This document shows positions 824-62,511 of a stretch of DNA of 64,000 nt, one piece after another. The translations under genes were made by a program, and so were the position numbers. Origin of the DNA: an uncultured Clostridia bacterium (GTDB lineage: Bacteria; Bacillota; Clostridia; Christensenellales; UBA1242); contig CALWKF010000001.1 in NCBI GenBank assembly GCA_944381215.1, positions 65,201 to 129,200 on the forward strand, given 5' to 3'. The notes under the pieces are model-generated. The model was given only the letters and a program-made list of their open reading frames with translations. It did not search any database and had not been told where the DNA came from. Position 1 is the first letter of the stretch; every line of letters starts with the position of its first letter.

Positions 824-1360
824 TTAATAAAATTTAGTGTAGATTGTTATGTTTTGCTTGATTTTGGATAAATAATAGTTTGTGGCAGGGTAAGGGGTTG
901 AGGTTAACCGCTCGCCGTCGCTAAATTCTGGGTCGAGGAGCCACTCCTTAACGCGTGTTGGCCCCGCATTATAGGCGCACAACGCTGTGTCCGTGTCCTT
1001 AAAAGTGTCCACTAAATATTTAATATACGCCGTGCCCAAGGTGATGTTATACTCGGGCTCGAAAAGTCTGTTTTTATCAAATGTAATACCTTCTTTATTT
1101 GCAATAAACTTCGCAGTCTCGGGCATCAATTGCATTAGGCCTACTGCTCCCACGCTTGATACCGCTTGCGTATCAAAACCGCTTTCGGCATTGATTACAC
1201 TTGCGATTAGGACAGGTGGCAAATTATACTCATTTGCGATACTAATAATATTCTCACGATAGGCAAGCGGGTAAAATATTAAAAAAGCCCCGACAATCAG
1301 CCCCGACACGCAGACAATTCCTATAATATATAATATAATAAAAAACATAATTTTGTCCAT
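824..1360 (-). CDS. membrane-anchored lytic transglycosylase (SLT domain)
   Basis: N-terminal TM helix, then the SLT signature AESGFDTQAVSSVGAVGLMQLMPETA...AYNAGPTRV. Confidence 0.85.
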   Translation of the reverse strand: MDKIMFFIILYIIGIVCVSGLIVGAFLIFYPLAYRENIISIANEYNLPPVLIASVINAESGFDTQAVSSVGAVGLMQLMPETAKFIANKEGITFDKNRLFEPEYNITLGTAYIKYLVDTFKDTDTALCAYNAGPTRVKEWLLDPEFSDGERLTSTPYPATNYYLSKIKQNITIYTKFY

Positions 1361-1575
1361 AATTCTATTATATAAAAATTTATTTTTTAAATACGCAAAA
1401 TCGCAAAATATAAGCGCATTTCTTTTAATAGGTTAAAGGTCGTTGCTAAATTGTAAATTTTGTTTTTCCTATGTATCATTTTTTATAAAACAGGCTTTAA
1501 AATATACAAAACCCTCAACTTTTTCACTTTTTTCTAAAAAATTAGAAAAAAATGCTAAAAATTTTATACAATCTC

Positions 1576-1604
1576 TTGACAAATTAAGGTGGCGCATTTA
1601 TAAT
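1576..1604 (+). promoter_or_regulatory. sigma-A type promoter for ylxM-ffh operon
   Basis: TTGACA (1576-1581), 17-nt spacer, TATAAT (1599-1604), about 35 nt upstream of the ylxM start. Confidence 0.5.
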
Positions 1605-1639
1605 ATGTGTAAAGTAGAAATACTTTACAGAGGTGCCGT

Positions 1640-1981
1640 ATGGATGTAGGCAAATTAGTGCGGATGAGTGTCTTGCTAGATTTTTATGGCGGAATGCTGA
1701 CTAGCACGCAGTACGAAATTGCGCGCAGTTATGTAGATTACAACTCGAGCCTTGCTGAAATCGCTGAGGACACGCACACTTCGAGACAGGCAGTAAACGA
1801 TATCCTTCACCGCACTTTTAAAAAGTTAGAGGACTTTGAGAGCAAACTTGGCTTTTTAAAAAAGTACGAGAGGGTGCTTTATAGTGTCGAGCAAACGGCG
1901 AGCGCGTGCGAGCTAAATGCTGAGGAGTATAGGGCAGTAGTCGAGCACTTTACGAAATTAATAGAGAGTTTAAAGGAGTAG
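1640..1981 (+). CDS. ylxM: YlxM/UPF0122 putative DNA-binding protein
   Basis: Small HTH-like protein (LLDFYGGMLTSTQYEIARSYVDYNSSLAEIAE) directly upstream of ffh, the conserved Firmicute arrangement. Confidence 0.8.
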   Translation: MDVGKLVRMSVLLDFYGGMLTSTQYEIARSYVDYNSSLAEIAEDTHTSRQAVNDILHRTFKKLEDFESKLGFLKKYERVLYSVEQTASACELNAEEYRAVVEHFTKLIESLKE

Positions 1982-1985
1982 GGAT

Positions 1986-3305
1986 ATGGCAATGTTTGAG
2001 GGATTATCACAGAGGCTAAACCACATTTTCAGCAAGATTACCCAGCGTGGAAAACTTACCGAACTCGAAATTAATCAGGCAATGCGCGAAATCCGTGTGG
2101 CACTTTTGGAGGCGGATGTCAACTACTTAGTCGTAAAAAAGTTTGTCAACGACGTTTCTGAAAAGGCCAAGGGTGAGGAGGTAATGCAGAGCCTCACCCC
2201 AGGGCAACAAGTAATTAAAATCGTGCGCGACGAACTCGTAAACCTTATGGGTAGCACGCAGAGTAAACTCGACCTGTCTGGCACACCGCCCGCGGTCATC
2301 ATGATGTGCGGTCTGCAAGGTGCTGGTAAGACTACCCTTTGTGGCAAACTTGCGAGCTTACTAAAGAGTCAAGGCAAAAAAGTGCTACTCGTTGCCTGCG
2401 ATATTTACAGGAATGCTGCAATTGACCAGTTAAAAATTGTCGGCAAGCAGGCTGGCGTCGAAGTGTTCGAGCGCGGTACCCAAGACCCCGTGAAAACGGC
2501 TAGGCAGGGTATCGAGCACGCAAAGCACGAGGGCCTCGATGTAGTTATTATCGACACCGCAGGACGACTTCACATCGACGAACAAATGATGGACGAGTTA
2601 AAGCGCATGAAGGCGGACATTCATCCAAACGAGATTTTGTTCACAATCGACGCAATGACTGGTCAAGACTCTGTAAACGTTGCAAAAGAGTTTAACGACC
2701 AACTAGACATTACTGGCATAGTTGTCACCAAACTCGACGGCGACACCCGAGGCGGTGTGGCACTGTCCGTAAAGGCAGTGACAGGTAAGCCCATTAAGTA
2801 CTGCGGTGTGGGCGAGAAACAGGGCGATTTAGAGCCCTTTCACCCCGACCGTATGGCTAGCCGAATCTTAGGCATGGGCGACGTGCTCACCTTGATTGAG
2901 AAGGCCCAAAATGCTGTCGACGAGCAGGAAATGGAGAGGATGCAGAAGACTCTTCGGGAAAACAGTTTTACTTTGCAAGACTACCTCCAACAAATTGAGA
3001 GCCTCAACAAAATGGGCGACATCAACGCACTCATGGACATGATTCCAGGCCTGCGTGGCAAGATGAAGGGCGTTACAATCGACGAGGCAGAAATCGCTAG
3101 AAACAAGGCAATCATCCAGTCCATGACCCCTGAGGAGCGCTTTGACCCCGAGATTATCAAGGCCAGCCAGAAAAAGCGCATTGCAAACGGCAGTGGCACG
3201 ACTATTCAAGAGGTCAACACGCTACTAAAACAATTTGCCCAAAGCAAAGAACTCTTAAAGCAGTACTCGGGCAAAAAAAGAAAAGGTAAATTTCCGTTTT
3301 TTTAA
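1986..3305 (+). CDS. ffh: signal recognition particle protein Ffh
   Basis: GTPase motifs GLQGAGKTT, DTAGR, TKLDGD, and a Met-rich M domain. Confidence 0.97.
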   Translation: MAMFEGLSQRLNHIFSKITQRGKLTELEINQAMREIRVALLEADVNYLVVKKFVNDVSEKAKGEEVMQSLTPGQQVIKIVRDELVNLMGSTQSKLDLSGTPPAVIMMCGLQGAGKTTLCGKLASLLKSQGKKVLLVACDIYRNAAIDQLKIVGKQAGVEVFERGTQDPVKTARQGIEHAKHEGLDVVIIDTAGRLHIDEQMMDELKRMKADIHPNEILFTIDAMTGQDSVNVAKEFNDQLDITGIVVTKLDGDTRGGVALSVKAVTGKPIKYCGVGEKQGDLEPFHPDRMASRILGMGDVLTLIEKAQNAVDEQEMERMQKTLRENSFTLQDYLQQIESLNKMGDINALMDMIPGLRGKMKGVTIDEAEIARNKAIIQSMTPEERFDPEIIKASQKKRIANGSGTTIQEVNTLLKQFAQSKELLKQYSGKKRKGKFPFF

Positions 3306-3342
3306 ACGAAAATTATATTAAATTTATTTAAGGAGAAAGAAA

Positions 3343-3693
3343 ATGGCAGTTAAAATTAGATTAACTCGTTTAGGCGACAAAAAGTCACCGTTTTACCGCG
3401 TAGTCGTAACCGATTCACGCAGTGCAAGAGATGGAAAGTTTATTGAGAACTTGGGTACATATGACCCACTCAAAGACCCATTTCAATTGAGTCTTAACAA
3501 GGAGCGCGTAGAGTACTGGCTATCAGTTGGCGCAACACCTACCGACACCGTTCGCGAACTACTCGTTAAAGAGGGAATTGTTAAGGCAAAGCCCTATGTT
3601 GCTCCAAAACCAAAGCAAATGCCACCAGCACCAAAGGCAAAAGCTGAGGAGCCTGCTGAGGGTGAGGCAACTGCTGAAACCGCTAGTGAATAG
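3343..3693 (+). CDS. rpsP: 30S ribosomal protein S16 with Ala/Pro/Lys/Glu-rich C-terminal tail
   Basis: [22 protein letters not shown]... is a typical S16 N-terminus. GGAGA RBS. Follows ffh. Confidence 0.95.
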
Positions 3694-3759
3694 TTTTTAG
3701 AGCCTATTTGTTTGCAAAATTAATGCGAATTTGATAAAATAAAAGTAGGCTTTTCCAAA

Positions 3760-3786
3760 GTGAGAGGCTTTCCTCTCGCTTTTTGT
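3760..3786 (+). terminator. possible attenuator or terminator hairpin between rpsP and rimM
   Basis: gagagg-cttt-cctctc hairpin followed by gcttttt. Confidence 0.35.
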
Positions 3787-3800
3787 TTATGGAGGGATGT

Positions 3801-4301
3801 ATGAAAGTAGAATTAGGTAGAGTACTAAAGCCCCAAGGAATCAAGGGCGAATTAAAGGTCGAGCCACTCTCGAATCCAGAGTTTTTTAAAGATATTAGTC
3901 TAGTCGAAATCAACGGGCAAGAGGCGAATATCGAGTCCGCAAGTATTAGAGCCGATGGCGTGTATCTAAAACTCGACATAATTCACGATCGCACCGAGGC
4001 CGAAAATTATCGCGACGCAGTCATCACCGCCGAGCGCGAGGCACTCCCAGATTTAGCGGAAGGCCAGTTTTTCTACGAGGACCTTATTGGGTGTCAAGTG
4101 TATTTCGAGTCTGGTGAGTTTGTGGGTGAAATCGTGGACATCGAAAACTACGGAAACGCAGATTTGTTTGCTATTCACAAAGATTTTAGCACCGTTCTTT
4201 GTCCGTACATCGACGGCGTGTTTACCTCAATTGACACCCACGCTAAAAAAATCATAGCCAACGAAAAAAGATATAGGGAAGTGACCGATTATGAGGATTG
4301 A
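3801..4301 (+). CDS. rimM: 16S rRNA processing protein RimM
   Basis: MKVELGRVLKPQGIKGELKV is a typical RimM start. GGAGGG at 3791-3796 favours ATG 3801 over the track's TTG 3783. Overlaps the trmD start. Confidence 0.85.
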   Translation: MKVELGRVLKPQGIKGELKVEPLSNPEFFKDISLVEINGQEANIESASIRADGVYLKLDIIHDRTEAENYRDAVITAEREALPDLAEGQFFYEDLIGCQVYFESGEFVGEIVDIENYGNADLFAIHKDFSTVLCPYIDGVFTSIDTHAKKIIANEKRYREVTDYED

Positions 4302-4965
4302 TATATTGACACTTTTTCCCGATAGTTTTGCACCACTACGCGAAAGCATAATAGCGCGAGCCGTTGATTCGGGAAAATTCGACCTAAATATAATAAACAT
4401 CCGCGACTTTTCAACGGACAAGCATAAAAAATGCGATGACGAAATCTTCGGGGGCGGGGACGGACTCCTCATGATGCCTCAACCTCTATTTGATTGTATC
4501 GAGAGTGTAAGAAATAAAAACTCGCACATTATCTACTTATCCCCAAAGGGCACGACCTTTACCCAAACTAAGGCCAAGCAACTCGTAGAATACGAGCACC
4601 TAATATTAATTTGCGGACACTACGAGGGAATCGACCAGCGAGTGATTGACACCTTTGTCGACGAGGAAATCAGCATCGGCGACTACGTGCTGACTGGTGG
4701 GGAACTGCCCGCTATGGTCGTGGTCGACACGGTGGCACGGCTTATTCCAAACGTGCTCCACAGCGAGAACTCGGCAAAGGACGATAGTTTCGAGAACAAC
4801 CTGCTCGAATACCCGCAGTACACGCGCCCCGCTGACTTTCGCGGACTAAAAGTGCCCGAAATACTCCTTAGTGGCAATCACCAGGAAATCGCCAAGTGGC
4901 GAAAAGCGCAGAGCGAACACATTACAAAAGAGCGTCGCCCCGACCTAATTGATAAAAATAACTAA
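4291..4965 (+). CDS. trmD: tRNA (guanine37-N1)-methyltransferase
   Basis: MRIDILTLFP...GGGDGLLMMPQP...YEGIDQRV motifs. Confidence 0.95.
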   Translation: MRIDILTLFPDSFAPLRESIIARAVDSGKFDLNIINIRDFSTDKHKKCDDEIFGGGDGLLMMPQPLFDCIESVRNKNSHIIYLSPKGTTFTQTKAKQLVEYEHLILICGHYEGIDQRVIDTFVDEEISIGDYVLTGGELPAMVVVDTVARLIPNVLHSENSAKDDSFENNLLEYPQYTRPADFRGLKVPEILLSGNHQEIAKWRKAQSEHITKERRPDLIDKNN

Positions 4966-8003: not shown

Positions 8004-8335
8004 AAAGAGGATACTGGGCTGGCGCGGTGCGTAGGTGTATTCCAAATATATTTAGGGTCATCCTGAGTGTCGACCCGCGTAGCCTTTGTAACTCAGCGCA
8101 TATGGAAAGTAGCAATAGAAATATTTAGCATGACGCTGCCCGAAGGATCTCATTCCTGCCTCTTAAAACAAACGGAGCACAAGTAATCGCTTTAAGAGGC
8201 TACTGTGGCTAGCGCGAGAGCATTCATTTCTAATTATACCAATCACTTACGCGCCAGACTTCCCGCAAGCGGGAAGGCATCCTGAGCCCGCCCCGCGAAG
8301 CCTTTAGACGAAGGATCTATTCCTCTTAGATACTT
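8004..8335 (+). repeat. mosaic GC-rich intergenic repeat array 1 (same module family as 59250-60062)
   Basis: Modules: X (8014-8056, CTGGGCTGGCGCGGTGCG...ATATATTTAGG); long core (8057-8153, GTCATCCTGAG...GTAACTCAGCGCAT...GACGCTGCCCGAAGGATCTCAT); Y (8203-8277, with the cttcccg-caag-cgggaag hairpin at 8259-8276); short core (8278-8320). No ORF. Confidence 0.85.
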
Positions 8336-8382
8336 TTCCCAGTATTTTACAGCCTCTAATTTTCTAAAAAACTTCGATTAAT

Positions 8383-8411
8383 TTGCTAAAACCTCTAAAT
8401 ATTGATATAAT
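8383..8411 (+). promoter_or_regulatory. strong sigma-A promoter of paralogue A
   Basis: TTGCTA (8383-8388), 17-nt spacer, TGaTATAAT extended -10 (8403-8411). The same block recurs at 60157-60185. Confidence 0.6.
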
Positions 8412-8452
8412 ATAAATATCAAATATTATTTATATCATTAGGAGGCCAAAAA

Positions 8453-8512
8453 ATGGAGCACTCTTTTAATACAAAAATGCATAAAAACCTACGGGGGGGG
8501 GGCGCTTTCTAG
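8453..8512 (+). other. 5' leader ORF (MEHSFNTKMHKNLRGGGAF*) carrying G10; the true N-terminus of paralogue A when the tract is 9 or 12 G
   Basis: AGGAGG at 8440-8445, ATG at 8453. With 10 G the frame stops at TAG 8510-8512. Deleting one G reads through as ...NLRGGALSSLIISCIAILILCAVFGLSFAQF..., in frame with ORF 8553-10772. Confidence 0.7.
8493..8502 (+). repeat. poly(G)10 homopolymer (candidate slipped-strand switch)
   Basis: Counted directly: acGGGGGGGGGGcgc. Confidence 0.9.
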
Positions 8513-8552
8513 CCTAATAATATCTTGTATCGCAATTCTTATTTTATGTGCG

Positions 8553-10772
8553 GTGTTCGGCCTATCCTTTGCTCAATTTATCAAAAACTCCAGCAACCCA
8601 GTAAACGCATTTACCGTTAGTAGCTCAAATGCGGTCATAGTTCCTCAACTATGGAACAGCAGTACACAGTCTTTTAACCGTGATGCAATGTCTACGCTAC
8701 TTAAGTACATATCAAGCGATGGTTCCATTAATAGAGTAAACACCACTCAACAAACCGCGGCAGATATTCGTGGATACACCTATAACGGCAAAACAAATAG
8801 TCAGGCAGTAGTAGTAACCATAGGCGATTATCAGTGGCAAGTAGTCTACCTTACTCGCACAAACAACACCAGTGGTGATCGTATAGCCACACTCTTAATG
8901 GTAGACAATGGTGGCACCGCTTCATTTAGTCACGGTGGATATGATAGAGGTAACAACTGGACAGGTGCTTATCCCTCCAATATGTATGGTGCTAGTTACC
9001 TTCGTGCTGTTACGCTAAACAATGGTGGAACGTACGCTAATATTACTGTTACTTATAGTAATTCATACTCAACTGCAACAGCAACTCAGTCCTCATCTCA
9101 TAAATACGCTTTATATACGGTAGCCTCACAAGGACTAACTAATTACTTAGTACAGCCTAAAAATGTATGGTATCAAACACGGGCTCAACTAACAGGCAGT
9201 GCTAATCCAGAAGGTTACACTTTAAACAACGAGTCTCTATCCACAACCATAAGTACAGGCTGGAACAACAATAATGCTTCTACTTACTCTTATCAATCTA
9301 AAGCCAACTACACGCAGTGGAGGAATGACTATCTCTGGTGTCCTAGCCTTTCAGAAACAGGTACAAGTAATTCTAAGTTAGGTATTTGGGAGTTATCCAC
9401 AACAGAACGTTCAGCTTCTACTGATTGGTGGTCGCGGTCTGGTGGCTATTCTAATTCGGACTCTGCTTACTACCTTGATTCCTCCGGCTCCAGCTGTAAT
9501 GACAGCGTTGTGCACTATAACAACGGCGTGCGGGTAGCGCTTCACTTAAATCTTGATAAAATTGCTCAAGATTTAACATACGCAATAACTGCCACATCGG
9601 ATACACAAAGTATCGTAGATAAAAATTCGTTAGAATACTACTTATTATTAAACGCCGAAGTTACCTTTACATATACTGCAAACCCCAATTATTATATAAA
9701 TCAAGTTCAAATTGGTTCTACTACAGTAACTAATTTCCAAACTACAATACCTAGTAGTTTTACTAACGCGGGTACTTTTCAATACAAGGCATATAGAGTA
9801 AATAATAGTAATAGTGTAAGTGTGGTGTTAAAGTCACTTACTACCGATTTAAATTTATCGTGTAGTGCGCAATCATACATTAATATCTCCACCGAAAACG
9901 CGGCGGTAACCGTAAATAGTTATAATCGAACGAATTATTTTTCTACGACCGCTACAATTTCCGTTCAACAAAATGTGGCATACACCCAGAGGTTTAGATT
10001 ACCAAGCCAAAACTGGATAGATATTAGCACAACTGCCTCGGGCGATGGTTATGTCGGCAGTATTTATTACCAGTACACGACCGCCAATAATGTTATAACC
10101 CTAAATTTCGAAAACCTCACCTTAGGCACAGTTTTTGAGGTCATCTTCAGCGGAGATGAGAAACCACTCTCATACACTGCAACGGGTGGCACGGCGACCT
10201 TCGAGGAATTTATAGATGATGAGGGCTACACCAATATAATCGTGCGCCCAGCAGAAGGCTATTATGTGAACACGATTACGGTCGACAACGTGGCCTTTAC
10301 TGTCGAGTACTACCGCGCCGAAATCATGGGGGCGGGCAATGCTCGAATTATCGGCTACACCGTAAAGGACACCAACAACGTGCTCGACTTGTGGCTCGTT
10401 GGGCAGTACGACAACTCCAACATCGTTTTCAACCTCTCCACAACTCGCCCTACCTACAGAGTCCCCGCGACAGGTGGGGCGGTTACTGGCACGGTAGTTA
10501 CTGCTGGTGCTGGCGGTGAAGCGCGCATTGTGGGCTTTGACTCAAGCGACACCGCAGATACTGACACTCTTACCTTTATCGCGGTAAGTTACTCGGGCTA
10601 CGCCTTCTCGGGCTGGGAGGTCGACGGCCAAATTCTCTCGGGCTACGGTTCGAATGCCTCGATTCCGTATTCGCTAGTTAAGGACAAAGTGGTAACCGCA
10701 GTCTTTACACCCACTTCGAATAACTCCGCAAACGGCACCACCGACAACCCCTGGGGCTCCGACATCGCCTAA
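8553..10772 (+). CDS. large secreted/surface protein, paralogue A: WWSRSG...GVRxALHLNL head (DUF6273-like) plus InlB-B-repeat-like C-terminus; as sequenced it lacks its signal anchor
   Basis: 739-aa ORF starting at an internal GTG with no RBS. Residues ~20-340 are highly similar by eye to the 60559-62511 product. The C-terminal YSGYAFSGWEVDGQ...VTAVFTP is a Listeria/Bacteroides-type B-repeat motif. Confidence 0.8.
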   Translation: MFGLSFAQFIKNSSNPVNAFTVSSSNAVIVPQLWNSSTQSFNRDAMSTLLKYISSDGSINRVNTTQQTAADIRGYTYNGKTNSQAVVVTIGDYQWQVVYLTRTNNTSGDRIATLLMVDNGGTASFSHGGYDRGNNWTGAYPSNMYGASYLRAVTLNNGGTYANITVTYSNSYSTATATQSSSHKYALYTVASQGLTNYLVQPKNVWYQTRAQLTGSANPEGYTLNNESLSTTISTGWNNNNASTYSYQSKANYTQWRNDYLWCPSLSETGTSNSKLGIWELSTTERSASTDWWSRSGGYSNSDSAYYLDSSGSSCNDSVVHYNNGVRVALHLNLDKIAQDLTYAITATSDTQSIVDKNSLEYYLLLNAEVTFTYTANPNYYINQVQIGSTTVTNFQTTIPSSFTNAGTFQYKAYRVNNSNSVSVVLKSLTTDLNLSCSAQSYINISTENAAVTVNSYNRTNYFSTTATISVQQNVAYTQRFRLPSQNWIDISTTASGDGYVGSIYYQYTTANNVITLNFENLTLGTVFEVIFSGDEKPLSYTATGGTATFEEFIDDEGYTNIIVRPAEGYYVNTITVDNVAFTVEYYRAEIMGAGNARIIGYTVKDTNNVLDLWLVGQYDNSNIVFNLSTTRPTYRVPATGGAVTGTVVTAGAGGEARIVGFDSSDTADTDTLTFIAVSYSGYAFSGWEVDGQILSGYGSNASIPYSLVKDKVVTAVFTPTSNNSANGTTDNPWGSDIA

Positions 10773-53678: not shown

Positions 53679-56600
53679 TTATTTACGACGCTTAATTTGA
53701 ACGGTCTTTTCTTTTTTCTCAGTTTCTTTCTTGATTTTTTGATTTATGCGGTCATATTCATCTTCAAGGATTCGAATGTCCAATTCAATTTGCTCAATTT
53801 TGTCTTGCTGAATTTTGATTGATTTAGCAATCTGCTTCTCATCGGGCAACTCTAACTCCACATTAGGATTGTCTTGCGCAATCTCTTTTGCAGTGTTGTA
53901 TGCTTGTACTTTCTTTTCGTACTCGGCTTGTTCTTGTGCCAAGAAGTCTTGCGACTGCTTCAACTCCTCGTGGAGTAGGTCAATCTTGTGCTTAATTGCA
54001 GTCTTGCGCTCACGGCGGTCAACATCTTTAAGCAAGGTCTGCAAGCGGTCGTAGTCGGTGCCCACAACAGTTGCATTCTTTCTCGGGCGGTTTTGGTAGA
54101 ATTTCTTGATGTAGAAGCCAACCACAGCCACAATTACAGCCACCGCGATAATTACGGTAGGGATAGCAAACCAGTCAAATGAGCCATAAACATTTGGAGT
54201 CTCTTCCTCTTCCTCAACGGTGTTAGTAGCCATTAGGATGTTGTCGGGCAAGTTCTCGGTATCAATGGTCGCTGTTTCACTGTTGTAGTCGTCTTCGGAT
54301 AGGTTCGTTACAGTAAGGCCTGCAAAGAACACATAACCAGTCGTAGGCATAGCCTGCGTGCCGAGCCCAAGGCGAATCACACCATCAACGTCGCTCGTGG
54401 TGTTGATGTACATAACGTACTCGGTCCATTCGTTCGTACGGTCATTGAACATATCCTCCAAGGTCGTACGCTCGTTTTTCGCGGTATTAATTCCAGTAAA
54501 ACTGCTGTCAATTCCGTCAATACTAATCGATGCACCATTTACATAAGGGTTACCATTCTCATCGTATTCGCCTTCAACATTTTTAGCAATGTTTATAGTG
54601 CGCACCCAAACACTCAGTTTGTAGTATTGGCCCGAGGTAAAGGTGTAGGTGAGGTTGCTAGTGTAGTAGTAGTACATCGGGTTTGTCGTGTCAGTTGTAG
54701 CGATAAATAGCACCATGTTGTTGTCATCACTAGGAGCGGTAGGGTTGCCCTCAAGGTAGCGGTCGTAGTAGCGCACGTCAATTAGACCACTGTTTACGTA
54801 AATAGGGTCGTAGCCCTCGCCAATGCTCCCAGTCCAGTAGGTAGGCTGGCCATTTGTAACGGCAGTCAGCGAGTTTGTAGTCAGGTCAACCACATAGGTG
54901 TTGTCATCAGCAGTAATGCCGTTAAAGGTTTCCTCGGTGATGCTCGTGTCAATGATACAGTTGTCGAAGAACGCCACACCACTGGTAGGAGTATTCTCAT
55001 CTCCTAGGGTCAAACTTACGGTCAGATCTTGCGCGTCAAAGGTGTTTTTGATGTAAATTTCGTAGCTTTCCCAAGCATTTGTGCTAGGTAGTCTAATTTG
55101 CTGAATGATAACATTGTCAGCATTTCTAACGGTAATCGCTGCGTAGCCATTTGAACTAATACTGCGCGTGTACGCCTCAACGCTAATCAAGGCATATCCG
55201 TCAGCGGTCACGTTCACACTACCACTGGTGTATCCCTGGTAGTAGCGCGCATCGTTACGAACCATCAGCACATTGTCCGAGTAGTCTCCGCTAGGCTTAG
55301 CAGGGCGGGCAATGTTTAGATTGCTCTCGCTCCAAAGTTCGGGTAAAAGGTTTACGACACCGCTGTTGATTACATTGTCGCTAACAGCAGTCCAGTCCTT
55401 AGGTGCCAGCGGATAGGAAACTCCGTCTTCGCCAATTTCCACGAAGTTAAATGTGCCGTTTACAAAGGAAAGGGTCGTGAAGTTGTTTAAGGTTAAAGTT
55501 GCAGTGCTAGAAGCACTCGAAGTAGCATCCTGTTGAGCAGTGGTTACTTTTTCGCTCCTAATTCCAGCAATTGCAACATAGCCTGTTGCATTTGCACTGC
55601 TGGTCCCTAGACCAAGGGTAAGGTTTACGACGCCGTCAAATAACGGGTTACCCTCGATATAAAAGGTGTAGAGTGCCCAGTTGTTGTTAATGGCTAATGC
55701 AGAGGTCGATAGGGTGCTAATGCTCTGGCTCTGCAAGGTCCCCTCAGGGTTGTCCTCGTCAGGCATTACGGTCTGCTCAGGCAGGTATCCCGATACCATA
55801 AAGTTAGCCGACCCTGTTGTCAGGTTCCCCTTAGCCCAGAATGTGATGCGGTAGAGGCCGTGTTGCTTGATTTCAATGTCGCTGGACTTAATAGCGTCAT
55901 AACCGTCGTTTACAGCGATTACAACACCACTGTTATCACCGCGTTGGTTCGTACCGAAAATAATACTCTCATCGTTAACGGTCAAAGGCTTGTTAAAATC
56001 ACTGTTGGTAGCATTTGAGCCGTTTACGTAAATTACAGTACCATTCGAGGATGTCTCATTAGTCCAAGTCCCAGATAGAGGCTTTGAGAAGTCCCCGTTT
56101 TCCACAAAGCCGTCGCCACTAGTTAGGTAAGTGGGGCGAAGGTCAACAAAACTCGAGTATGTGCTAGTGTTTAAAACCTCGTTAAATTTGTCCCCAGAGT
56201 AACGCTTTACCATTACATTGTCAAAGAGTACAAACCCAGCACTGCCACCGATTGTGGACTTTTCGCCAAGGAATAGCTCGAGCCCAACACTCGTGTCGCC
56301 CTCGGAACCGGTCGCAATGTAGAAGGTTACTGTCTGCCAGCCACCTTGAGTGTTAATTCCTGTGATTTGCGATTCATAGGTTTCCTCAACATCCTCGCCA
56401 GTTAAGTACACACTCGCCGAAGCGGTCGGGTCGGTGTACACGCGCACACTGATTTCGTAGAAGCTGTTGCTGGTTAGGGTAACGTCAGTGTCGTTTGCAT
56501 AACCATAGTTGTAACGTACATCACTGCTACCATTGTTACCGCTGTTAATCATTAGGACATATTGGTCAGAGCTTGAAGCCGAACTAGCTGGCGGGCGAGT

Positions 56601-56957
56601 AAATTCTGTCAGGCCATAGTCGCCGTGGTGCGAGTTCCAAGTTGAAAGAGTTAGGTCAATTATACCAGCCTTTTCGGGTTCGATTAGTGTGTTCTCATCC
56701 CAAACTGACCACGATTGAGGAGGCCTCGGGAATGAGGAAGTACTAGACGCATTCGCAAAAGTGTTGTTTGAAAAGTTTGTTACACTGTCATCAATGTTGA
56801 TTGCGTCAGTAGTCAGGTCCGTAACGTCGCTAGCAGAAACAATGCTACGGCTCCCCGCGATTCCAGTAAGAAAGATAGCGTTCTGCATCAACAGAAAACT
56901 AATCACCAAAATCATTGTAAGAATAAATGTGTTAATTGAGAAAGATTTTTTAGTCAT
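53679..56957 (-). CDS. large envelope protein: N-terminal signal anchor, four CBM-like jelly-roll modules, C-terminal TM, cytoplasmic coiled-coil tail
   Basis: Four ~190-aa modules with a recurring pattern (NGDF/NGTF...W...GVVNL/GIIDL...Y.ISV.VYT...W..Y.IYI...GL.L.LG...G...FDN..V). TM AIPTVIIAVAVIVAVVGFYI, then heptad-like K/E/Q-rich ~130 aa. Confidence 0.8.
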   Translation of the reverse strand: MTKKSFSINTFILTMILVISFLLMQNAIFLTGIAGSRSIVSASDVTDLTTDAINIDDSVTNFSNNTFANASSTSSFPRPPQSWSVWDENTLIEPEKAGIIDLTLSTWNSHHGDYGLTEFTRPPASSASSSDQYVLMINSGNNGSSDVRYNYGYANDTDVTLTSNSFYEISVRVYTDPTASASVYLTGEDVEETYESQITGINTQGGWQTVTFYIATGSEGDTSVGLELFLGEKSTIGGSAGFVLFDNVMVKRYSGDKFNEVLNTSTYSSFVDLRPTYLTSGDGFVENGDFSKPLSGTWTNETSSNGTVIYVNGSNATNSDFNKPLTVNDESIIFGTNQRGDNSGVVIAVNDGYDAIKSSDIEIKQHGLYRITFWAKGNLTTGSANFMVSGYLPEQTVMPDEDNPEGTLQSQSISTLSTSALAINNNWALYTFYIEGNPLFDGVVNLTLGLGTSSANATGYVAIAGIRSEKVTTAQQDATSSASSTATLTLNNFTTLSFVNGTFNFVEIGEDGVSYPLAPKDWTAVSDNVINSGVVNLLPELWSESNLNIARPAKPSGDYSDNVLMVRNDARYYQGYTSGSVNVTADGYALISVEAYTRSISSNGYAAITVRNADNVIIQQIRLPSTNAWESYEIYIKNTFDAQDLTVSLTLGDENTPTSGVAFFDNCIIDTSITEETFNGITADDNTYVVDLTTNSLTAVTNGQPTYWTGSIGEGYDPIYVNSGLIDVRYYDRYLEGNPTAPSDDNNMVLFIATTDTTNPMYYYYTSNLTYTFTSGQYYKLSVWVRTINIAKNVEGEYDENGNPYVNGASISIDGIDSSFTGINTAKNERTTLEDMFNDRTNEWTEYVMYINTTSDVDGVIRLGLGTQAMPTTGYVFFAGLTVTNLSEDDYNSETATIDTENLPDNILMATNTVEEEEETPNVYGSFDWFAIPTVIIAVAVIVAVVGFYIKKFYQNRPRKNATVVGTDYDRLQTLLKDVDRRERKTAIKHKIDLLHEELKQSQDFLAQEQAEYEKKVQAYNTAKEIAQDNPNVELELPDEKQIAKSIKIQQDKIEQIELDIRILEDEYDRINQKIKKETEKKEKTVQIKRRK

Positions 56958-57108: not shown

Positions 57109-57465
57109 ATGACTGTATCAAAAATTAGCGGTTTAGTAGTCGCGGGAATGGTAATTGGAGTCATAAATGGCTTTTTTGGCGGTGGGGGCGGAATGATATG
57201 CGTGCCAGCACTCCTGCTACTCGGCCTAAAAAACAAAGAGGCCCAAGCAACCGCAATTTTGATTATGCTACCCATAAGTATTGCCAGCGCGATTGTTTAT
57301 TATTCAAACGGCTTTGTTGATTGGTGGACCGTGCTGTTTGTCGCAATTGGCTCAATATTCGGCGGAATAGTCGGGGCGTACTTGCTTAAAAAATTATCAA
57401 ACAATGTTTTACAATATATTTTTGCTGTCGTGGTGCTGTCGGCTGGTATTAGAATGCTGTTTTAG
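57109..57465 (+). CDS. TSUP (TauE/SafE) family transporter, half-size subunit 1
   Basis: GFFGGGGGMICVPALLLLG glycine motif. 118 aa, about 4 TM segments. Confidence 0.8.
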   Translation: MTVSKISGLVVAGMVIGVINGFFGGGGGMICVPALLLLGLKNKEAQATAILIMLPISIASAIVYYSNGFVDWWTVLFVAIGSIFGGIVGAYLLKKLSNNVLQYIFAVVVLSAGIRMLF

Positions 57466-57473
57466 GAGGGGTT

Positions 57474-57911
57474 ATGGCGTGGTATTTTTTGGTGCTTGCG
57501 GGCCTGTTTGGCGGGCTCGTCGGCGGAATGGGAATGGGCGGAGGCACATTATTAATTCCAATTCTTACAATGTTTTTAGGGGTCGAGCAACATCTAGCGC
57601 AAGCAATAAACCTGCTCGTTTTCATCCCCACAGGCCTAATAGCCGTTCTCATCCACGCGAAAAATAAATTGCTCGATTTCAAGGTCTTCGGCATTATCAT
57701 CATCCCAGCAATAGCCACAGCCGTGGGTTCTGCATTGCTAGTGGGCGAGATAAAGAGCGACACTTTGCGCATAATTTTCGGCGCATTTTTAATTATTATT
57801 GGCCTGTTTGAATTGTACCAGGCAATAAACACCACAATCAAGAATAAAAGGAAAATAAACACCCCGATTATAAAACACAATCTCTACTCGCGCTTTTCTC
57901 GAGATTTTTAA
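57474..57911 (+). CDS. TSUP (TauE/SafE) family transporter, half-size subunit 2
   Basis: GGMGMGGGTLLIPILTMFLG motif. 145 aa. Starts 8 nt after subunit 1. Confidence 0.8.
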   Translation: MAWYFLVLAGLFGGLVGGMGMGGGTLLIPILTMFLGVEQHLAQAINLLVFIPTGLIAVLIHAKNKLLDFKVFGIIIIPAIATAVGSALLVGEIKSDTLRIIFGAFLIIIGLFELYQAINTTIKNKRKINTPIIKHNLYSRFSRDF

Positions 57912-58869: not shown

Positions 58870-59208
58870 ATGGCTGAAACAAAAAAGAGTTCTAGCTCAA
58901 AGTCTTCGAGCAGTAGCAGTAGTAGTAGCAGTAAGAAGTCATCAATGTGGGGCTTAAACAAGATTTCGTTCTACACAATCGCCGCAGTTGCAATTTTATA
59001 CTTGATTAGTTTAATCTTGTCTGCTTGTGGCGTTTCATCTGTTGCTGTAATGGCTATGCAGAATATCGGTACTGCTATTATGGTAGGTATCACCGCATAT
59101 CTAGCATGGAAGTATGTTCGCCCTAAACAAACCGTTTGGAAAGTACTATACTTCGTACTGTTGCTCGTAATTCTAGCTGGTATTATCGTGCCTCTAGTAA
59201 TGGGCTAA
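58870..59208 (+). CDS. small membrane protein with poly-Ser N-terminus
   Basis: AAGGAG RBS. KKSSSSKSSSSSSSSSSKKSS is encoded by an AGY/TCN run. Three hydrophobic segments. Strong terminator. Confidence 0.7.
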   Translation: MAETKKSSSSKSSSSSSSSSSKKSSMWGLNKISFYTIAAVAILYLISLILSACGVSSVAVMAMQNIGTAIMVGITAYLAWKYVRPKQTVWKVLYFVLLLVILAGIIVPLVMG

Positions 59209-59216
59209 AAACAAAA

Positions 59217-59243
59217 AACTTGGGATACCCCAAGTTTTTTTGT
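59217..59243 (+). terminator. rho-independent terminator
   Basis: aacttggg / cccaagtt stem with a 4-nt loop, then T7. Confidence 0.8.
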
Positions 59244-59249
59244 TTTTAA

Positions 59250-60062
59250 AGGCCATTATACTAACGCAGTGCGAGGACGTACTTCCAAATATATTTAAGG
59301 TCATCCTGAGCCCGCCCCGCGAAGCCTGAGACGAAGGATCTCATTCCTGCCACTTTTAAAAGGACACTGGGCTGGCGCGAGAGTATTCGTTTCTAATTAT
59401 ACCAATCATTCGCGCGCCAGACTTCCCGTAAACGGGAAGGCATCCTGAGCCTCGACCCGCGAAGCCCTTTGTAACTCAGCGCATAGGAAAAGTAACAATA
59501 GAAATATTTAGCACGACGCTGCCCGAAGGATCTCATCTCATCCGCTTAAAAAGGACACTGGGCTGGCATGGTGCGAAGTCGCACACAATATATTTAAAGT
59601 CATTCTGAGCCCGCCCCTCGTAGCCTTCGACGAAGAATCTCATTCCATCCGCTTTAAAAGGCCACAGGGCTGGCGCGAGAGTATTCGTTTCTAATTATAC
59701 CAATCATTCACGCGCCAGACTTCCCGCAAGCGGGAAGGCATCCTGAGCCCGCCCCGCGAAGCCTTCGTAACTCAGCGCATAAGAAAAGCAACAATAGAAA
59801 CATCTAGCATGACGCTGCCCGAAGGATCTCATCTCCTTTGGTCATCCTGAGCCCGCCCCGCGAAGCCTGAGACGAAGGATCTCATTCCTGCCTCTTAAAA
59901 CAATGCCCAACAAACCATAAAGATGTAGTAGAACAAAGCGGCTGAGATTCTTCGTCTCAGGCTCTGTAAGCAGGGCTCAGAATGACAGTGTTTTTTACCA
60001 ATAAAATCACTTAGTCATCCTGAGTGCCGACCCTCGAAGCTCTCAGACGAAGGATCTCATCC
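59250..60062 (+). repeat. mosaic GC-rich intergenic repeat array 2 (about 0.8 kb)
   Basis: Core copies: short 59300-59344, long 59441-59536, short 59599-59643, long 59739-59832, short 59841-59885, inverted short 59944-59986, short 60014-60060. Y modules: 59367-59440 and 59665-59738. X modules: 59261-59299 and 59556-59598. No ORF. Confidence 0.9.
59944..59986 (-). repeat. inverted copy of the short core module
   Basis: gagattcttcgtctcaggc...ggctcagaatgac is the reverse complement of the GTCATTCTGAGCC...GCCTGAGACGAAGAATCTC consensus. Confidence 0.85.
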
Positions 60063-60156
60063 ACTTATTTACTGCTTTCTAAAGAGATTTTTTACGCAAT
60101 TTAAATAATTTACCAGTATTTTACAGCCTATAATTTTTAAAAACTTTTTAAAAAAT

Positions 60157-60185
60157 TTGCTAAAAACCTCGAAAATTGTTATAAT
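60157..60185 (+). promoter_or_regulatory. sigma-A promoter, homologue of 8383-8411
   Basis: TTGCTA (60157-60162), 17-nt spacer, TGtTATAAT (60177-60185), within a block homologous to 8338-8420. Confidence 0.55.
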
Positions 60186-60362
60186 AATATTATTAGAATA
60201 TGTAAAGGAGGGAATCAACAACAAACAACTTCTAGGACGATGTAGCCTTTAATTGCTAGTTAATCATAGTATAACCTTGTTTAATTTAAGTCGATTATTA
60301 AATTATATCTTGTTCCTAGTCTAAAATTAAATTATATTAAGTTATGTTGTTGAAAAATAAAT

Positions 60363-60422
60363 ATGAAGTACTCTTTTAATACAAAATTGCATAAAAACCT
60401 ACGGGGGGGGGGCGCTTTCTAG
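60363..60422 (+). other. relic leader ORF (MKYSFNTKLHKNLRGGGAF*) carrying G10, now a uORF in the 5' leader of paralogue B
   Basis: About 75 bp near-identical to 8459-8530. No good RBS. With 9 G it would run only to a TAA 14 codons later, not into the gene. Confidence 0.6.
60403..60412 (+). repeat. poly(G)10 homopolymer, second copy
   Basis: Counted directly: acGGGGGGGGGGcgc, in the same context as 8493-8502. Confidence 0.9.
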
Positions 60423-60558
60423 CCTAAAAATTTCTTGTATTAGAAAAACTCACTTTAATCTATAAATTTATTTTTAATCAAAAAATTTAATTAATTTTAC
60501 TAAAAATAAAAGTAATTTATAGAAAATGTCGTAATTTTATAACAAAAGGTGAGTTTTT

Positions 60559-62511
60559 ATGATAAAATTATCCAAAACTAAAACGAGTTTAATAGTAACC
60601 CTTGTCTGCATTTTCTGTATAGCCACACTATTAACCGCTTTTTTATTTACCCCGAAAGATATGGTAAACGCATTTACCAGTGTCGATAGTTCGAACGCAG
60701 TCGTTGTGCCTCAATTATGGGGTGAGTCCAGCCAGTCTTTTAACTATGATGCAATGTCAACACTACTAAGTTACATATCCAGTGATGGCACAATTAATGG
60801 GGTAAATACTACCCAGCAGACCGCCGCAGACATTCGCAACTATACCTACGGAGGAAAAGAAAGTGGAAAATCAGTCGTAGTAACTCTAGGTGATTACCAA
60901 TGGCAAGTAGTATACCTAACTAGGACAGGTAACACCACCGGCGACCGTATAGCCACATTACTAATGGTTAATAACGATGGTACAGCTAGTATAACTCCTG
61001 GTGGCTTCGATAGTGGTAGTAACTGGACAGGTGCTTATCCCTCTAATATGTATGGTGCTAGTTATATGCGTGCAGTTATCTTAAATAATGGCGGAATATA
61101 TGCTAATATTACTGCTGATAGTAACAATTCATATTCAACAGCATCAGCTACTCAATCTGCATCGCACAAGTACGCATTATATACTGTAGCCTCACAAGGA
61201 CTAACTCATTACTTAGTACAACCTAAAAATGTATGGTACCAAACCCAAGCACAGTTAACAGGCAGTGCTAATCCCGATGGATACACTCTAAACAACGAGT
61301 CATTATCTACCAGTATAAGTACAGGCTGGTACAGGAACTACGCTTCTGGTTACTCATACCAAACAAAGAACTATTACACCCAATGGGGGAATGACCATTT
61401 GTGGCTACCCAGCCTTTCAGAGACAGGTACAAGTAATTCTGAGTTGGGTATTTGGGAGTTGTCCACAACAGAACGTTCGGCTTCTAATGAGTGGTGGTCG
61501 CGGTCTGGTTGCTATAATGATTCGTACAGTGCTTACTTCCTTTATCCTTCCGGCTCCATCTCTCGTATCGGCATGGTGCACACTAGCTACGGCGTGCGGC
61601 CTTCGCTTCACTTAAATCTTGACTCTGCATTGAATAATTTAACAAATGATATAATAGTAGAGTCAAACGATTCTACTCAAGGTACAGTTTCAGGCGGTGG
61701 AGTGTATGACTTTGAGTATACGGGCACCACCACAATCACTGCACTTGCAAATTATGGCTATGTATTCGACTACTGGCAAGACAGTAGCGGGAACAAAATT
61801 TACCAAAACCCATATACTTTTCCAGTAACTAAAAGCGAAACATATACTGCATATTTCCGTGAACCTATAATTACAATTACATCCTCAAATGGTGGTGCCG
61901 AAATTACTCGTACAGACACCGATCCCGGCAACGTGTCAATCACTTATGGCCTAACATTTTCTGCAAATAATTATATATCGGGCATAATAATCAATAGCGG
62001 AGTTGTCCAAGATATCGGGAGCCTGAGTGGTGATTTAATAGTTGATGACACTTGCACCGCCATAAGTTACCGCACCAACACAACGGGCTCGCAACTCATA
62101 CTTGAAATTTTTCAAGTTACCAACGATATCACCATAAACCTAATATTTGTCGACATTGCCCAAAGTTACACCCCCGCCAGTGGTGGCACTAGTATTACGG
62201 GTGTCGCATTGCAAGTGAGCGGAGGCAATGGCGCGACCTTTGAGGCGGTAGGAGAGGCTCGAATCACAGGCTACTCCCAAGCCGAAAACATCACCTACGT
62301 GCACGTGAGCGCAGTCCCTTCGAGTGGCTACTATTTCGTAGGCTGGCAGACTAGCGACGACACCGACCTAAGCGATTACGGAAGCAGTGCCGACATCCCA
62401 TACAACCTAATCGAGGGAAAAATACTCACCGCTGTCTTCGCCCCCAAAACTTCTCAAAATGCCGACTCCACGCTAGACAACGCAGGGGACCAGTTTGCAC
62501 CCACTAGTTAA
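60559..62511 (+). CDS. large secreted/surface protein, paralogue B (DUF6273-like head plus B-repeat-like domains), intact with its own signal anchor
   Basis: MIKLSKTKTSLIVTLVCIFCIATLLTAFLF signal anchor. LWLPSLSE...WWSRSG...GVRPSLHLNL. GYVFDYWQDSSGN and GYYFVGWQTSDD repeat motifs. Confidence 0.85.
   Translation: MIKLSKTKTSLIVTLVCIFCIATLLTAFLFTPKDMVNAFTSVDSSNAVVVPQLWGESSQSFNYDAMSTLLSYISSDGTINGVNTTQQTAADIRNYTYGGKESGKSVVVTLGDYQWQVVYLTRTGNTTGDRIATLLMVNNDGTASITPGGFDSGSNWTGAYPSNMYGASYMRAVILNNGGIYANITADSNNSYSTASATQSASHKYALYTVASQGLTHYLVQPKNVWYQTQAQLTGSANPDGYTLNNESLSTSISTGWYRNYASGYSYQTKNYYTQWGNDHLWLPSLSETGTSNSELGIWELSTTERSASNEWWSRSGCYNDSYSAYFLYPSGSISRIGMVHTSYGVRPSLHLNLDSALNNLTNDIIVESNDSTQGTVSGGGVYDFEYTGTTTITALANYGYVFDYWQDSSGNKIYQNPYTFPVTKSETYTAYFREPIITITSSNGGAEITRTDTDPGNVSITYGLTFSANNYISGIIINSGVVQDIGSLSGDLIVDDTCTAISYRTNTTGSQLILEIFQVTNDITINLIFVDIAQSYTPASGGTSITGVALQVSGGNGATFEAVGEARITGYSQAENITYVHVSAVPSSGYYFVGWQTSDDTDLSDYGSSADIPYNLIEGKILTAVFAPKTSQNADSTLDNAGDQFAPTS

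Follow-up and report, generated by a model that had tools for sequence, protein, structure and literature searches.

A stranded poly-G leader ahead of a predicted surface-protein gene in an uncultured Clostridia bacterium: a candidate phase-variable upstream open reading frame

Among bacterial genes switched by simple sequence repeats (SSRs), Neisseria pilC with its poly-G tract, opa with its CTCTT repeat, and the poly-G contingency genes of Campylobacter are examples. In-frame phase variation by homopolymers or other SSRs placed in the 5' coding or signal-peptide region is well documented (PMC8355987, PMC5084427). The stretch of DNA analysed here, 64 kb from an uncultured Clostridia bacterium (contig CALWKF010000001.1; hereafter the window, position 1 being its first letter), carries two copies of a poly-G leader, one at the head of a gene beginning at 8453 (locus A) and the other within the 5' untranslated region (UTR) of a related gene beginning at 60559 (locus B), and all readings of it given below were made in silico. 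Locus A is like the in-frame systems in every respect, with a G10 tract 13 codons past the ATG, located before the anchor of a surface protein, and with ON and OFF alleles both found in public assemblies. Locus B has the same tract and leader, but there the tract stands apart from the gene, and an in-frame fusion is restored at none of its lengths; the host, moreover, belongs to a Gram-positive-type gut commensal lineage. Our tentative reading of locus B, modelled on its predicted folding and frames and held at somewhat under an even chance, is that the leader forms a phase-variable upstream open reading frame (uORF) that may gate a masked ribosome-binding site by leader-peptide coupling.

Leader-peptide coupling and attenuation are represented by the ermC leader, by repY-repZ of the IncI-alpha/IncB plasmids, and by tap-repA of plasmid R1. 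Locus B would share with these a short upstream open reading frame (ORF) on the predicted transcript, a Shine-Dalgarno sequence (SD) sequestered by an upstream complement, and a helix that ribosomes on the leader would open, all at the level of prediction. The triggers differ, being drug-induced stalling or antisense RNA control in the described systems and, as proposed for locus B, a heritable and reversible change of frame in the G tract. Switches in the promoter spacer form another class, exemplified by N. meningitidis porA and opc. The poly-C tract of the Bordetella fim promoter is a homopolymer switch of this kind (PMC1891110), and a family gene of another species (L069, see below) matches it, whereas the tract of locus B lies ~220 nucleotides (nt) downstream of the sole good promoter and has no flanking hexamers. 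In the tlpB leader a length-variable G tract in the 5' UTR sets expression post-transcriptionally through pairing with the small RNA (sRNA) RepG (PMC8295292). Locus B is similar in having a G tract in the 5' UTR, outside ORF and promoter, but no such sRNA is evident in the 64-kb window, and the tract is part of a translatable uORF. Lastly, hmw1A of Haemophilus influenzae has a heptamer SSR in its 5' UTR and a hairpin processed by RNase III (PMC12721329). There an SSR is transcribed within an extended, structured leader ahead of an adhesin gene, whose expression depends on how that leader folds, and locus B would resemble it in this; the hmw1A repeats, however, form an arm of the hairpin and grade expression by repeat number, while the locus B tract is outside the predicted helix and would act by frame. 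Locus B may be a combination of known kinds, SSR phase variation and leader-peptide coupling, a model-based view for which the case falls a little short of balanced. Literature searches returned no report of SSR phase variation in Christensenellales, the order to which the window belongs, and nothing that matched a phase-variable uORF or leader peptide, the tlpB leader (PMC8295292) and the hmw1A 5' UTR (PMC12721329) being the closest cases described.

The elements of locus B, all on the + strand, are the following.

60109–60193: family promoter block, with a CCAGTATTTTACA box, a -35 TTGCTA at 60157–60162 and an extended -10 TGtTATAAT ending at 60185
60196–60362: UTR1, the initial part of the 5' UTR, with an SD-like AAAGGAGGG at 60204–60212 that has no start codon behind it, and an inverted repeat (60216–60229 / 60341–60352)
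60363–60422: leader uORF as read at G10, MKYSFNTKLHKNLRGGGAF and stop, with the G10 at 60403–60412 and no SD upstream
60423–60465: 3n-only extension of the uORF, ...ALSSLKISCIRKTHFNL and stop (...ISCIRKTHFNL), TAA at 60463–60465, read only at G9/G12
60444–60456: anti-SD arm AAAAACUCACUUU, beginning 3 nt past the end of homology to the locus A leader
60466–60545: AT-rich loop between the helix arms
60546–60558: SD arm AAGGUGAGUUUUU, made up of the gene B SD and its spacer
60559–62511: gene B, 650 amino acids (aa), with an N-terminal membrane anchor MIKLSKTKTSLIV..., a DUF6273-type domain and immunoglobulin (Ig)-like modules of InlB-B-repeat type

The two arms are complementary over a 13-bp helix with a duplex energy of -13.1 kcal/mol, which appears in both the minimum free energy (MFE) and the centroid structure of the locus B UTR. 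Four B-type copies could be compared (the window copy and loci L001, L004 and L091, effectively about two lineages), and in each of them the per-base pairing probability of the helix is 0.8–1.0 in spite of substitutions and indels in the loop. In all four UTRs the SD of the gene is predicted to be paired with a probability of ~1.0, so that the view of gene B as constitutively translatable, put forward in a preliminary description of this DNA, is doubtful. When the UTR was shuffled 5000 times with its dinucleotides preserved, 5 of the shuffled sequences had a stretch of at least 10 nt able to form Watson-Crick pairs with the SD arm, and no strong masking of the SD is predicted for two loci termed plain, L088 (from the same sample as one B-type locus) and L007 (from a sister species), which have the same promoter and are leaderless.

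The position of the helix relative to the uORF is what would tie it to the tract. The 3n frame (G9, G12) passes through 60444–60456 to its stop at 60463–60465; the other frames stop at 60420–60422 or 60425–60427, 17–24 nt short of the anti-SD arm, which is inside the sole part of the uORF whose translation depends on tract length. By frame computation the uORF encodes 19 aa at G10, 20–21 aa at G8/G11 and 33–34 aa at G9/G12, and it joins the 60559 ORF at no tract length. Both earlier statements on this point, that the leader copy is uncoupled from its gene and that the 19-codon uORF is unable to enter it, hold at every tract length. A simple, geometry-based model of ribosome occupancy, in which pairing of the SD core was computed for each tract length, gave a paired probability of 0.999 at G8, G10, G11 and G13, and of ~0.55 at G9 and G12. 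Two properties of leader coupling are accordingly found here, sequestration of the SD by an upstream segment at the level of prediction, and overlap of leader ribosomes with that segment by geometry. The G tract itself is mostly unpaired in the predicted folds.

The arrangement recurs in three independent assemblies from different samples.

L001: G9, syntenic, with the same neighbours as the window; protein 82% identical
L004: G10, elsewhere on the chromosome (between PFK and YdjC/S20), with a protein that is 70% identical
L091: G10, complete B architecture

The B architecture is intact in 4/4 copies, at two chromosomal sites, with an uninterrupted tract of G9–G10 whose length differs between assemblies (G10, G9, G10 and G10 in the window, L001, L004 and L091), and the retention of G10 at exactly the length found at locus A, to which the preliminary description had drawn attention, is a coincidence of this assembly. 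Across the four copies 0/43 columns vary in the 3n-only extension, against 23/80 in the loop and 32/170 in UTR1. The 100-nt bin at 60359–60458, which holds uORF, tract and anti-SD, is 98–99% identical in all three comparisons, coding bins falling to 52–70%, and it is the most consistently conserved part of locus B. The suggestion that the tract may still have a role, for instance through uORF length, would be compatible with these findings.

Locus B is best understood beside locus A, which comprises the following elements on the + strand.

8335–8452: promoter block and SD, with -35 at 8383–8388, -10 at 8406–8411 and a strong SD AGGAGG at 8440–8445
8453–10772: gene with in-frame leader, ATG at 8453 and G10 at 8493–8502

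The homology of the two promoter blocks was borne out by pairwise alignment and by an unbiased repeat search (family D6), which paired 8335–8419 with 60109–60193 over 85 nt, ungapped and 75% identical; both promoters have TTGCTA, a 17-nt spacer and a TG-extended TATAAT. The leader block, described earlier as near-identical with an identical G10, is 93% identical over 82 nt (8449–8530 versus 60359–60440, repeat family D5), and both tracts are G10, the sole runs of G or C of at least 8 in the 64 kb. At locus A the tract falls within the coding sequence, past its start codon. Its present G10 leads to a TAG stop (8510–8512) after 19 codons and is OFF, and frame computation puts the ON state, a 772/773-aa protein, at G9/G12. 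In-frame copies have G10 (window locus A) and G9 (L003), and among protein calls P0034 (MEHSFNTKMHKNPRGGALSS...), the ON-state orthologue, is ON and P0033 OFF. Locus A is thus a classical in-frame switch, caught OFF, as had been proposed in calling this paralogue switchable, with its start now corrected to ATG 8453 and its G10 assigned to the OFF state.

At locus B promoter and leader are separated by 166 nt (60196–60362), compared with ~30 nt at locus A. The two loci diverge past ...CTTGTAT, where locus B continues with 118 nt of AT-rich sequence (60441–60558) containing AAGGTGA and then ATG 60559, which places its tract 147 nt upstream of the start codon and outside the in-frame class; homology between the proteins resumes at VNAFT, with 74% identity over ~340 aa, in line with the ...NAFT... 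of the preliminary description. The inverted repeat (CAACAACAAACAAC / GTTATGTTGTTG) closes ~135 nt of UTR1, and the orphan SD-like box AAAGGAGGG sits ~20 nt past the -10, at the place equivalent to that of the locus A SD, which directly precedes the ATG there. From its sequence, the UTR of locus B and L003 looks like one in which SD and ATG were pushed apart by a structured insert. UTR1 is single-copy in the window, and in L003 it stands ahead of an in-frame gene: that locus has a B-type promoter, the 166-nt UTR1, and an MKYSF leader (G9) fused in frame to an A-type anchor. Since this fusion retains the 166-nt segment, the segment is not what uncouples the leader, and of the ~170-bp AT-rich insertion previously described the segment itself stands, while its reading as an insertion is not supported. 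The junction at which uncoupling occurs lies past ...CTTGTAT, at 60440/60441.

Downstream of that junction locus B conforms to its family. Gene B matches DUF6273 (Pfam PF19789, E = 6e-7) and Flg_new_2 (PF18998, E = 1e-12), and its structural model has a transmembrane helix at residues 6–29 followed by beta-sandwich modules. With these Pfam domains behind an N-terminal anchor it has the make-up of the DUF6273 / InlB-B-repeat-type surface proteins known from Clostridia, and its product is, by sequence, a predicted surface protein. No NCBIfam or PDB relative was found by sequence search, and a PDB fold search with the predicted structure, the N-terminal domain of which has low confidence, gave only generic Ig-like or pilin-like matches. 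The family is large, with more than 20 copies in one metagenome-assembled genome (MAG), and strongly mosaic, identical blocks being shuffled among paralogues and strains so that nucleotide identity along the gene runs from 52% to 100%. Most homologues, including those of the sister species and the plain paralogues, start M(I)KLSK(T/V)K.. as gene B does. The plain loci L088 and L007 have a homologous promoter block, a leaderless AT-rich UTR of 165–200 nt, an SD of their own, and a MIKLSK-type start. The locus B start codon, MIKLSKTKTS anchor and long AT-rich UTR are, on this comparison, the family norm and therefore not novel. What the preliminary description regarded as AT-rich replacement DNA with a new site, a new ATG and a different anchor does exist as 118 nt with AAGGTGA before 60559, and it is the newness of start and anchor that fails. 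Alignment of this 118-nt segment with the plain-type UTRs is too AT-rich to settle homology. Judged by sequence, locus B is best described as a recombinant of a leader-bearing 5' cassette with a plain-type gene and part of its UTR.

The leader-bearing cassette may have a further component, GC-rich repeats, located at both loci of the window.

59288–60073, + strand: ~300-bp GC-rich repeat in ~2.5 copies, with CATCCTGAG...GAAGGATCT boxes and a perfect hairpin CTTCCCGCAAGCGGGAAG, immediately before the promoter of locus B
8059–8334: counterpart upstream of locus A (repeat search families D2–D4 and D10, and motif search)

Their motif has seven matches in the window, all at 59288–60073 and 8059–8334, against 0.12 expected by chance; a Tandem Repeats Finder run on them returned nothing. 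They also stand upstream of the leader-bearing L001 (~2270–2520), L003 (1–300), L004 (~1540–2010) and L091 (~700–1060), accompanying every leader-bearing locus seen, and are absent upstream of the plain L088 and L007. Such repeats could belong to a 5' cassette that is mobile or spread by conversion, or could serve as an insulator or terminator. The promoter is of wider occurrence, -35 and -10 being invariant in an alignment of locus B, locus A, L001, L004 and the plain L088 and L007. All promoters of the family, those of the sister species included, have an invariant box, CCAGTATTTT(A/C)CA, which precedes the -35 by ~45 nt.

60113–60125 and 8339–8351 of the window; ~1228–1240 of L088; ~522–534 of L007: box CCAGTATTTT(A/C)CA

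Its sequence could be that of a regulator-binding or UP-like element common to the whole family.

Poly-G tracts at the 5' end are not confined to the window. In a survey of 79 family loci from other Christensenellales MAGs, ~17 had a G8–G14 tract near the start of the gene (5' end, coding strand), most of them in frame in the N-terminal coding region and in several unrelated sequence contexts, and the sequences present poly-G switching at the 5' end as a recurrent habit of the family. In three loci of a Hadza-gut Clostridia MAG (L014, L015 and L024, tracts at ~2150–2400) the poly-G is in a long N-terminal extension (...RRGGGRLNSPKNAVF...), and a long ORF is open in two or even three classes of tract length, each time from another start codon further upstream, which suggests, by analogy, multi-start designs such as that of lic1 in H. 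influenzae. L069, from a rabbit-gut Clostridia MAG, has a G9 within a promoter spacer (495–530, TTGACA-aaacGGGGGGGGGac-TATAAT) of 15 nt, which G11 would bring to the optimal 17 nt; judging from its sequence, the poly-G of this family gene would switch transcription. A stranded leader occurs in L017, where an SD-preceded uORF (794–865, MINKNFCPYLSQMWITQGGGALK and stop, G11) lies ~470 nt upstream of a 1019-aa family gene (1325–4384), and this leader has its homologues in the ...RRGGGRLNSPK leaders that L014, L015 and L024 carry in frame.

The proposed working of locus B can be set out as follows. Its uORF is placed between the gene and the sole promoter-like site (60157–60185), a promoter scan having found no other between 60186 and 60535, and the transcript is predicted to start there. 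The family promoter would then give rise to a ~370-nt 5' UTR bearing the stranded poly-G leader ahead of a family-typical gene, whose SD would be locked in the 13-bp helix by the anti-SD 90 nt upstream. The leader would be translated as a uORF, in a frame set by slipped-strand changes of the G tract. At G8, G10, G11 and G13 the uORF would stop at 60420–60427, leaving the helix closed and the gene poorly translated, while at 3n (G9, G12) ribosomes would cross the anti-SD to the stop at 60463–60465, melting the helix and exposing the SD. Locus B would in this manner share its ON class of tract lengths with locus A, by coupling instead of frame fusion. In a broader form the proposal is one of phase-variable translational attenuation, in which one leader cassette has two wirings in a single genome, direct at locus A and via a uORF at locus B and L004-type loci, both ON at 3n, and in which gene conversion carries the switch from paralogue to paralogue as a conserved block of GC-rich repeats, promoter and leader; so extended, it is possible and distinctly less than even. 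The architecture, its recurrence, the frames, the complementarity and the pattern of conservation are read directly from the DNA.

Several points weigh against frame-dependent coupling at locus B. The uORF start, ATG 60363, has no SD, as opposed to 21/26 large ORFs of the window that do, and the region just past it (codons 4–6) is predicted to pair with AAAGGAGGG, so that translation of the uORF may, on these predictions, be weak. The same AAAGGAGGG box (60204–60212) is also able to pair with the anti-SD at a time when the true SD has yet to be transcribed, and in the folding models this could blur the dependence on frame. The helix was found post hoc, after looking for a mechanism. Both of its arms are invariant in the four copies (~two lineages), so there is no covariation, and the 3' arm, being an SD, would be expected to stay conserved in any case. 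Gene conversion, which is rampant among these genes, could alone maintain leader and tract, and L003 is a leader recombinant with its crossover at or near the tract. In L017, examined by the same anti-SD logic, there is no anti-SD complement to the SD of the gene, and relics, evidently, occur.

A recombinational relic is the leading alternative. Conversion between a leader-fused and a plain paralogue would have stranded the leader; its uORF would be barely translated, and expression from the family promoter would be set by the masked SD regardless of the tract, which would survive because the event is recent or through ongoing conversion from in-frame copies. We consider this, too, a possibility on which one would not bet evenly. 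The high mosaicism of the family agrees with it, as do the recombination at the leader seen in L003, the independent stranded poly-G leader without anti-SD of L017 in another species, the uORF lacking an SD, and the helix lacking covariation. It accounts poorly for an arrangement that is intact in all four copies at two sites with an uninterrupted G9–G10, for the uORF and anti-SD segment being the most conserved stretch of locus B, for the absence of such masking in plain paralogues, and for a 13-bp SD-masking helix whose 5' arm falls exactly in the frame-dependent part of the uORF, which is improbable by chance. A related view would make the GC-rich repeats, promoter and leader a homology block for cassette exchange, a recombination anchor by which gene bodies are swapped among in-frame, uORF-type and plain sites, the tract mattering only when the leader is in frame. 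The restriction of the GC-rich repeats to leader-bearing loci, the conserved 5' and 3' ends around variable middles, and the L003 hybrid of B-type leader and A-type anchor are in keeping with this view, which nonetheless leaves unexplained both the anti-SD helix and the invariance of the B-specific 60441–60465, not shared by in-frame copies; no recombinase or directional mechanism was identified, and we hold it to be improbable.

The tract might instead act at the level of DNA or RNA, as a promoter spacer, as a target of a C/U-rich sRNA in the RepG/tlpB manner, or as a structured or processed UTR element of the hmw1A type. That a family gene of another species (L069) has a G9 between TTGACA and TATAAT speaks for such a role, and there are established precedents in G-repeat leaders to which sRNAs bind and in UTR hairpins that contain SSRs (PMC8295292, PMC12721329). 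At locus B, on the other hand, no -35/-10 pair brackets 60403–60412, the window has no C-run of at least 6 for a complementary sRNA (one could be encoded in another part of the genome), the predicted folds leave most of the tract unpaired, and an Rfam search finds nothing in the region; all in all a direct DNA or RNA role seems very unlikely. Least credible is an artefact of assembly, in which the leader of locus A would have been wrongly joined to a different gene to make a chimeric second copy. Assemblies from short reads do break at poly-G tracts, as in the B-type contig L002, which starts right after the tract, but the same junctions are found in L001, L004 and L091 together with diagnostic B-type substitutions, and their presence in three independent assemblies effectively refutes this explanation. 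The preferred reading remains a uORF that may gate gene B by coupling, for which we infer, conditionally, the transcription start, translation of the uORF, formation of the helix in vivo, and any effect on expression.

Whichever of these applies, the window and its relatives present a large mosaic family of surface proteins with recurrent 5' poly-G tracts, located in frame, in a promoter spacer, or in a uORF. If frame-dependent leader-peptide coupling is true, it would be a new wiring for contingency loci, and scans confined to ORFs and promoters would undercount phase-variable genes. If locus B is a relic, it still documents the gain and loss of switches by recombination within a gene family. 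The Christensenellales are prominent, heritable and health-associated gut commensals that are difficult to culture. The neighbouring genes (rplS, leuS and a sporulation-type sigma factor) point to a Firmicute, and the relatives retrieved from GTDB, uncultured Christensenella/Clostridia MAGs, come from the gut of humans, mice and rabbits. A scan of JGI metagenomes for GGGGGGGCGCTTTCTAGCC gave just two matches, both unrelated and at chance level. Among public short-read contigs with B-type genes, that of L002 (1–20) begins right after the G tract, and the starts of L005 and L006, like that of L002, fall directly past the tract or within the AT-rich UTR. Assemblies break at the G tract, and tract-length surveys based on them will therefore be biased.

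Two other ideas about the locus B UTR were considered. A split ribosome-binding site, in which folding of UTR1 would set AAAGGAGGG beside the uORF ATG, is not borne out by the predicted folds, which pair the box with the uORF or the anti-SD instead. An origin of the two AT-rich segments, each flanked by inverted repeats, as miniature inverted-repeat transposable elements (MITEs) was rejected, as both are single-copy in the window and do not occur in unrelated loci. An Rfam search of 59000–60700 found nothing relevant.

Upstream of locus B, the 1092-aa ORF at 53679–56957 (- strand) has no Pfam match at E <= 0.01. The ORF at 58870–59208 encodes a small membrane protein with an extremely Ser/Lys-rich N-terminus (MAETKKSSSSKSSSSSSSSSSKKSS...) and no significant Pfam match, and is kept upstream of locus B in L001. 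Between these, the TauE/SafE family is represented by a pair of neighbouring half-size ORFs whose order is permuted, profile positions 127–237 being matched by the first (57109–57465) and positions 1–113 by the second (57474–57911), an arrangement that is also kept in L001.

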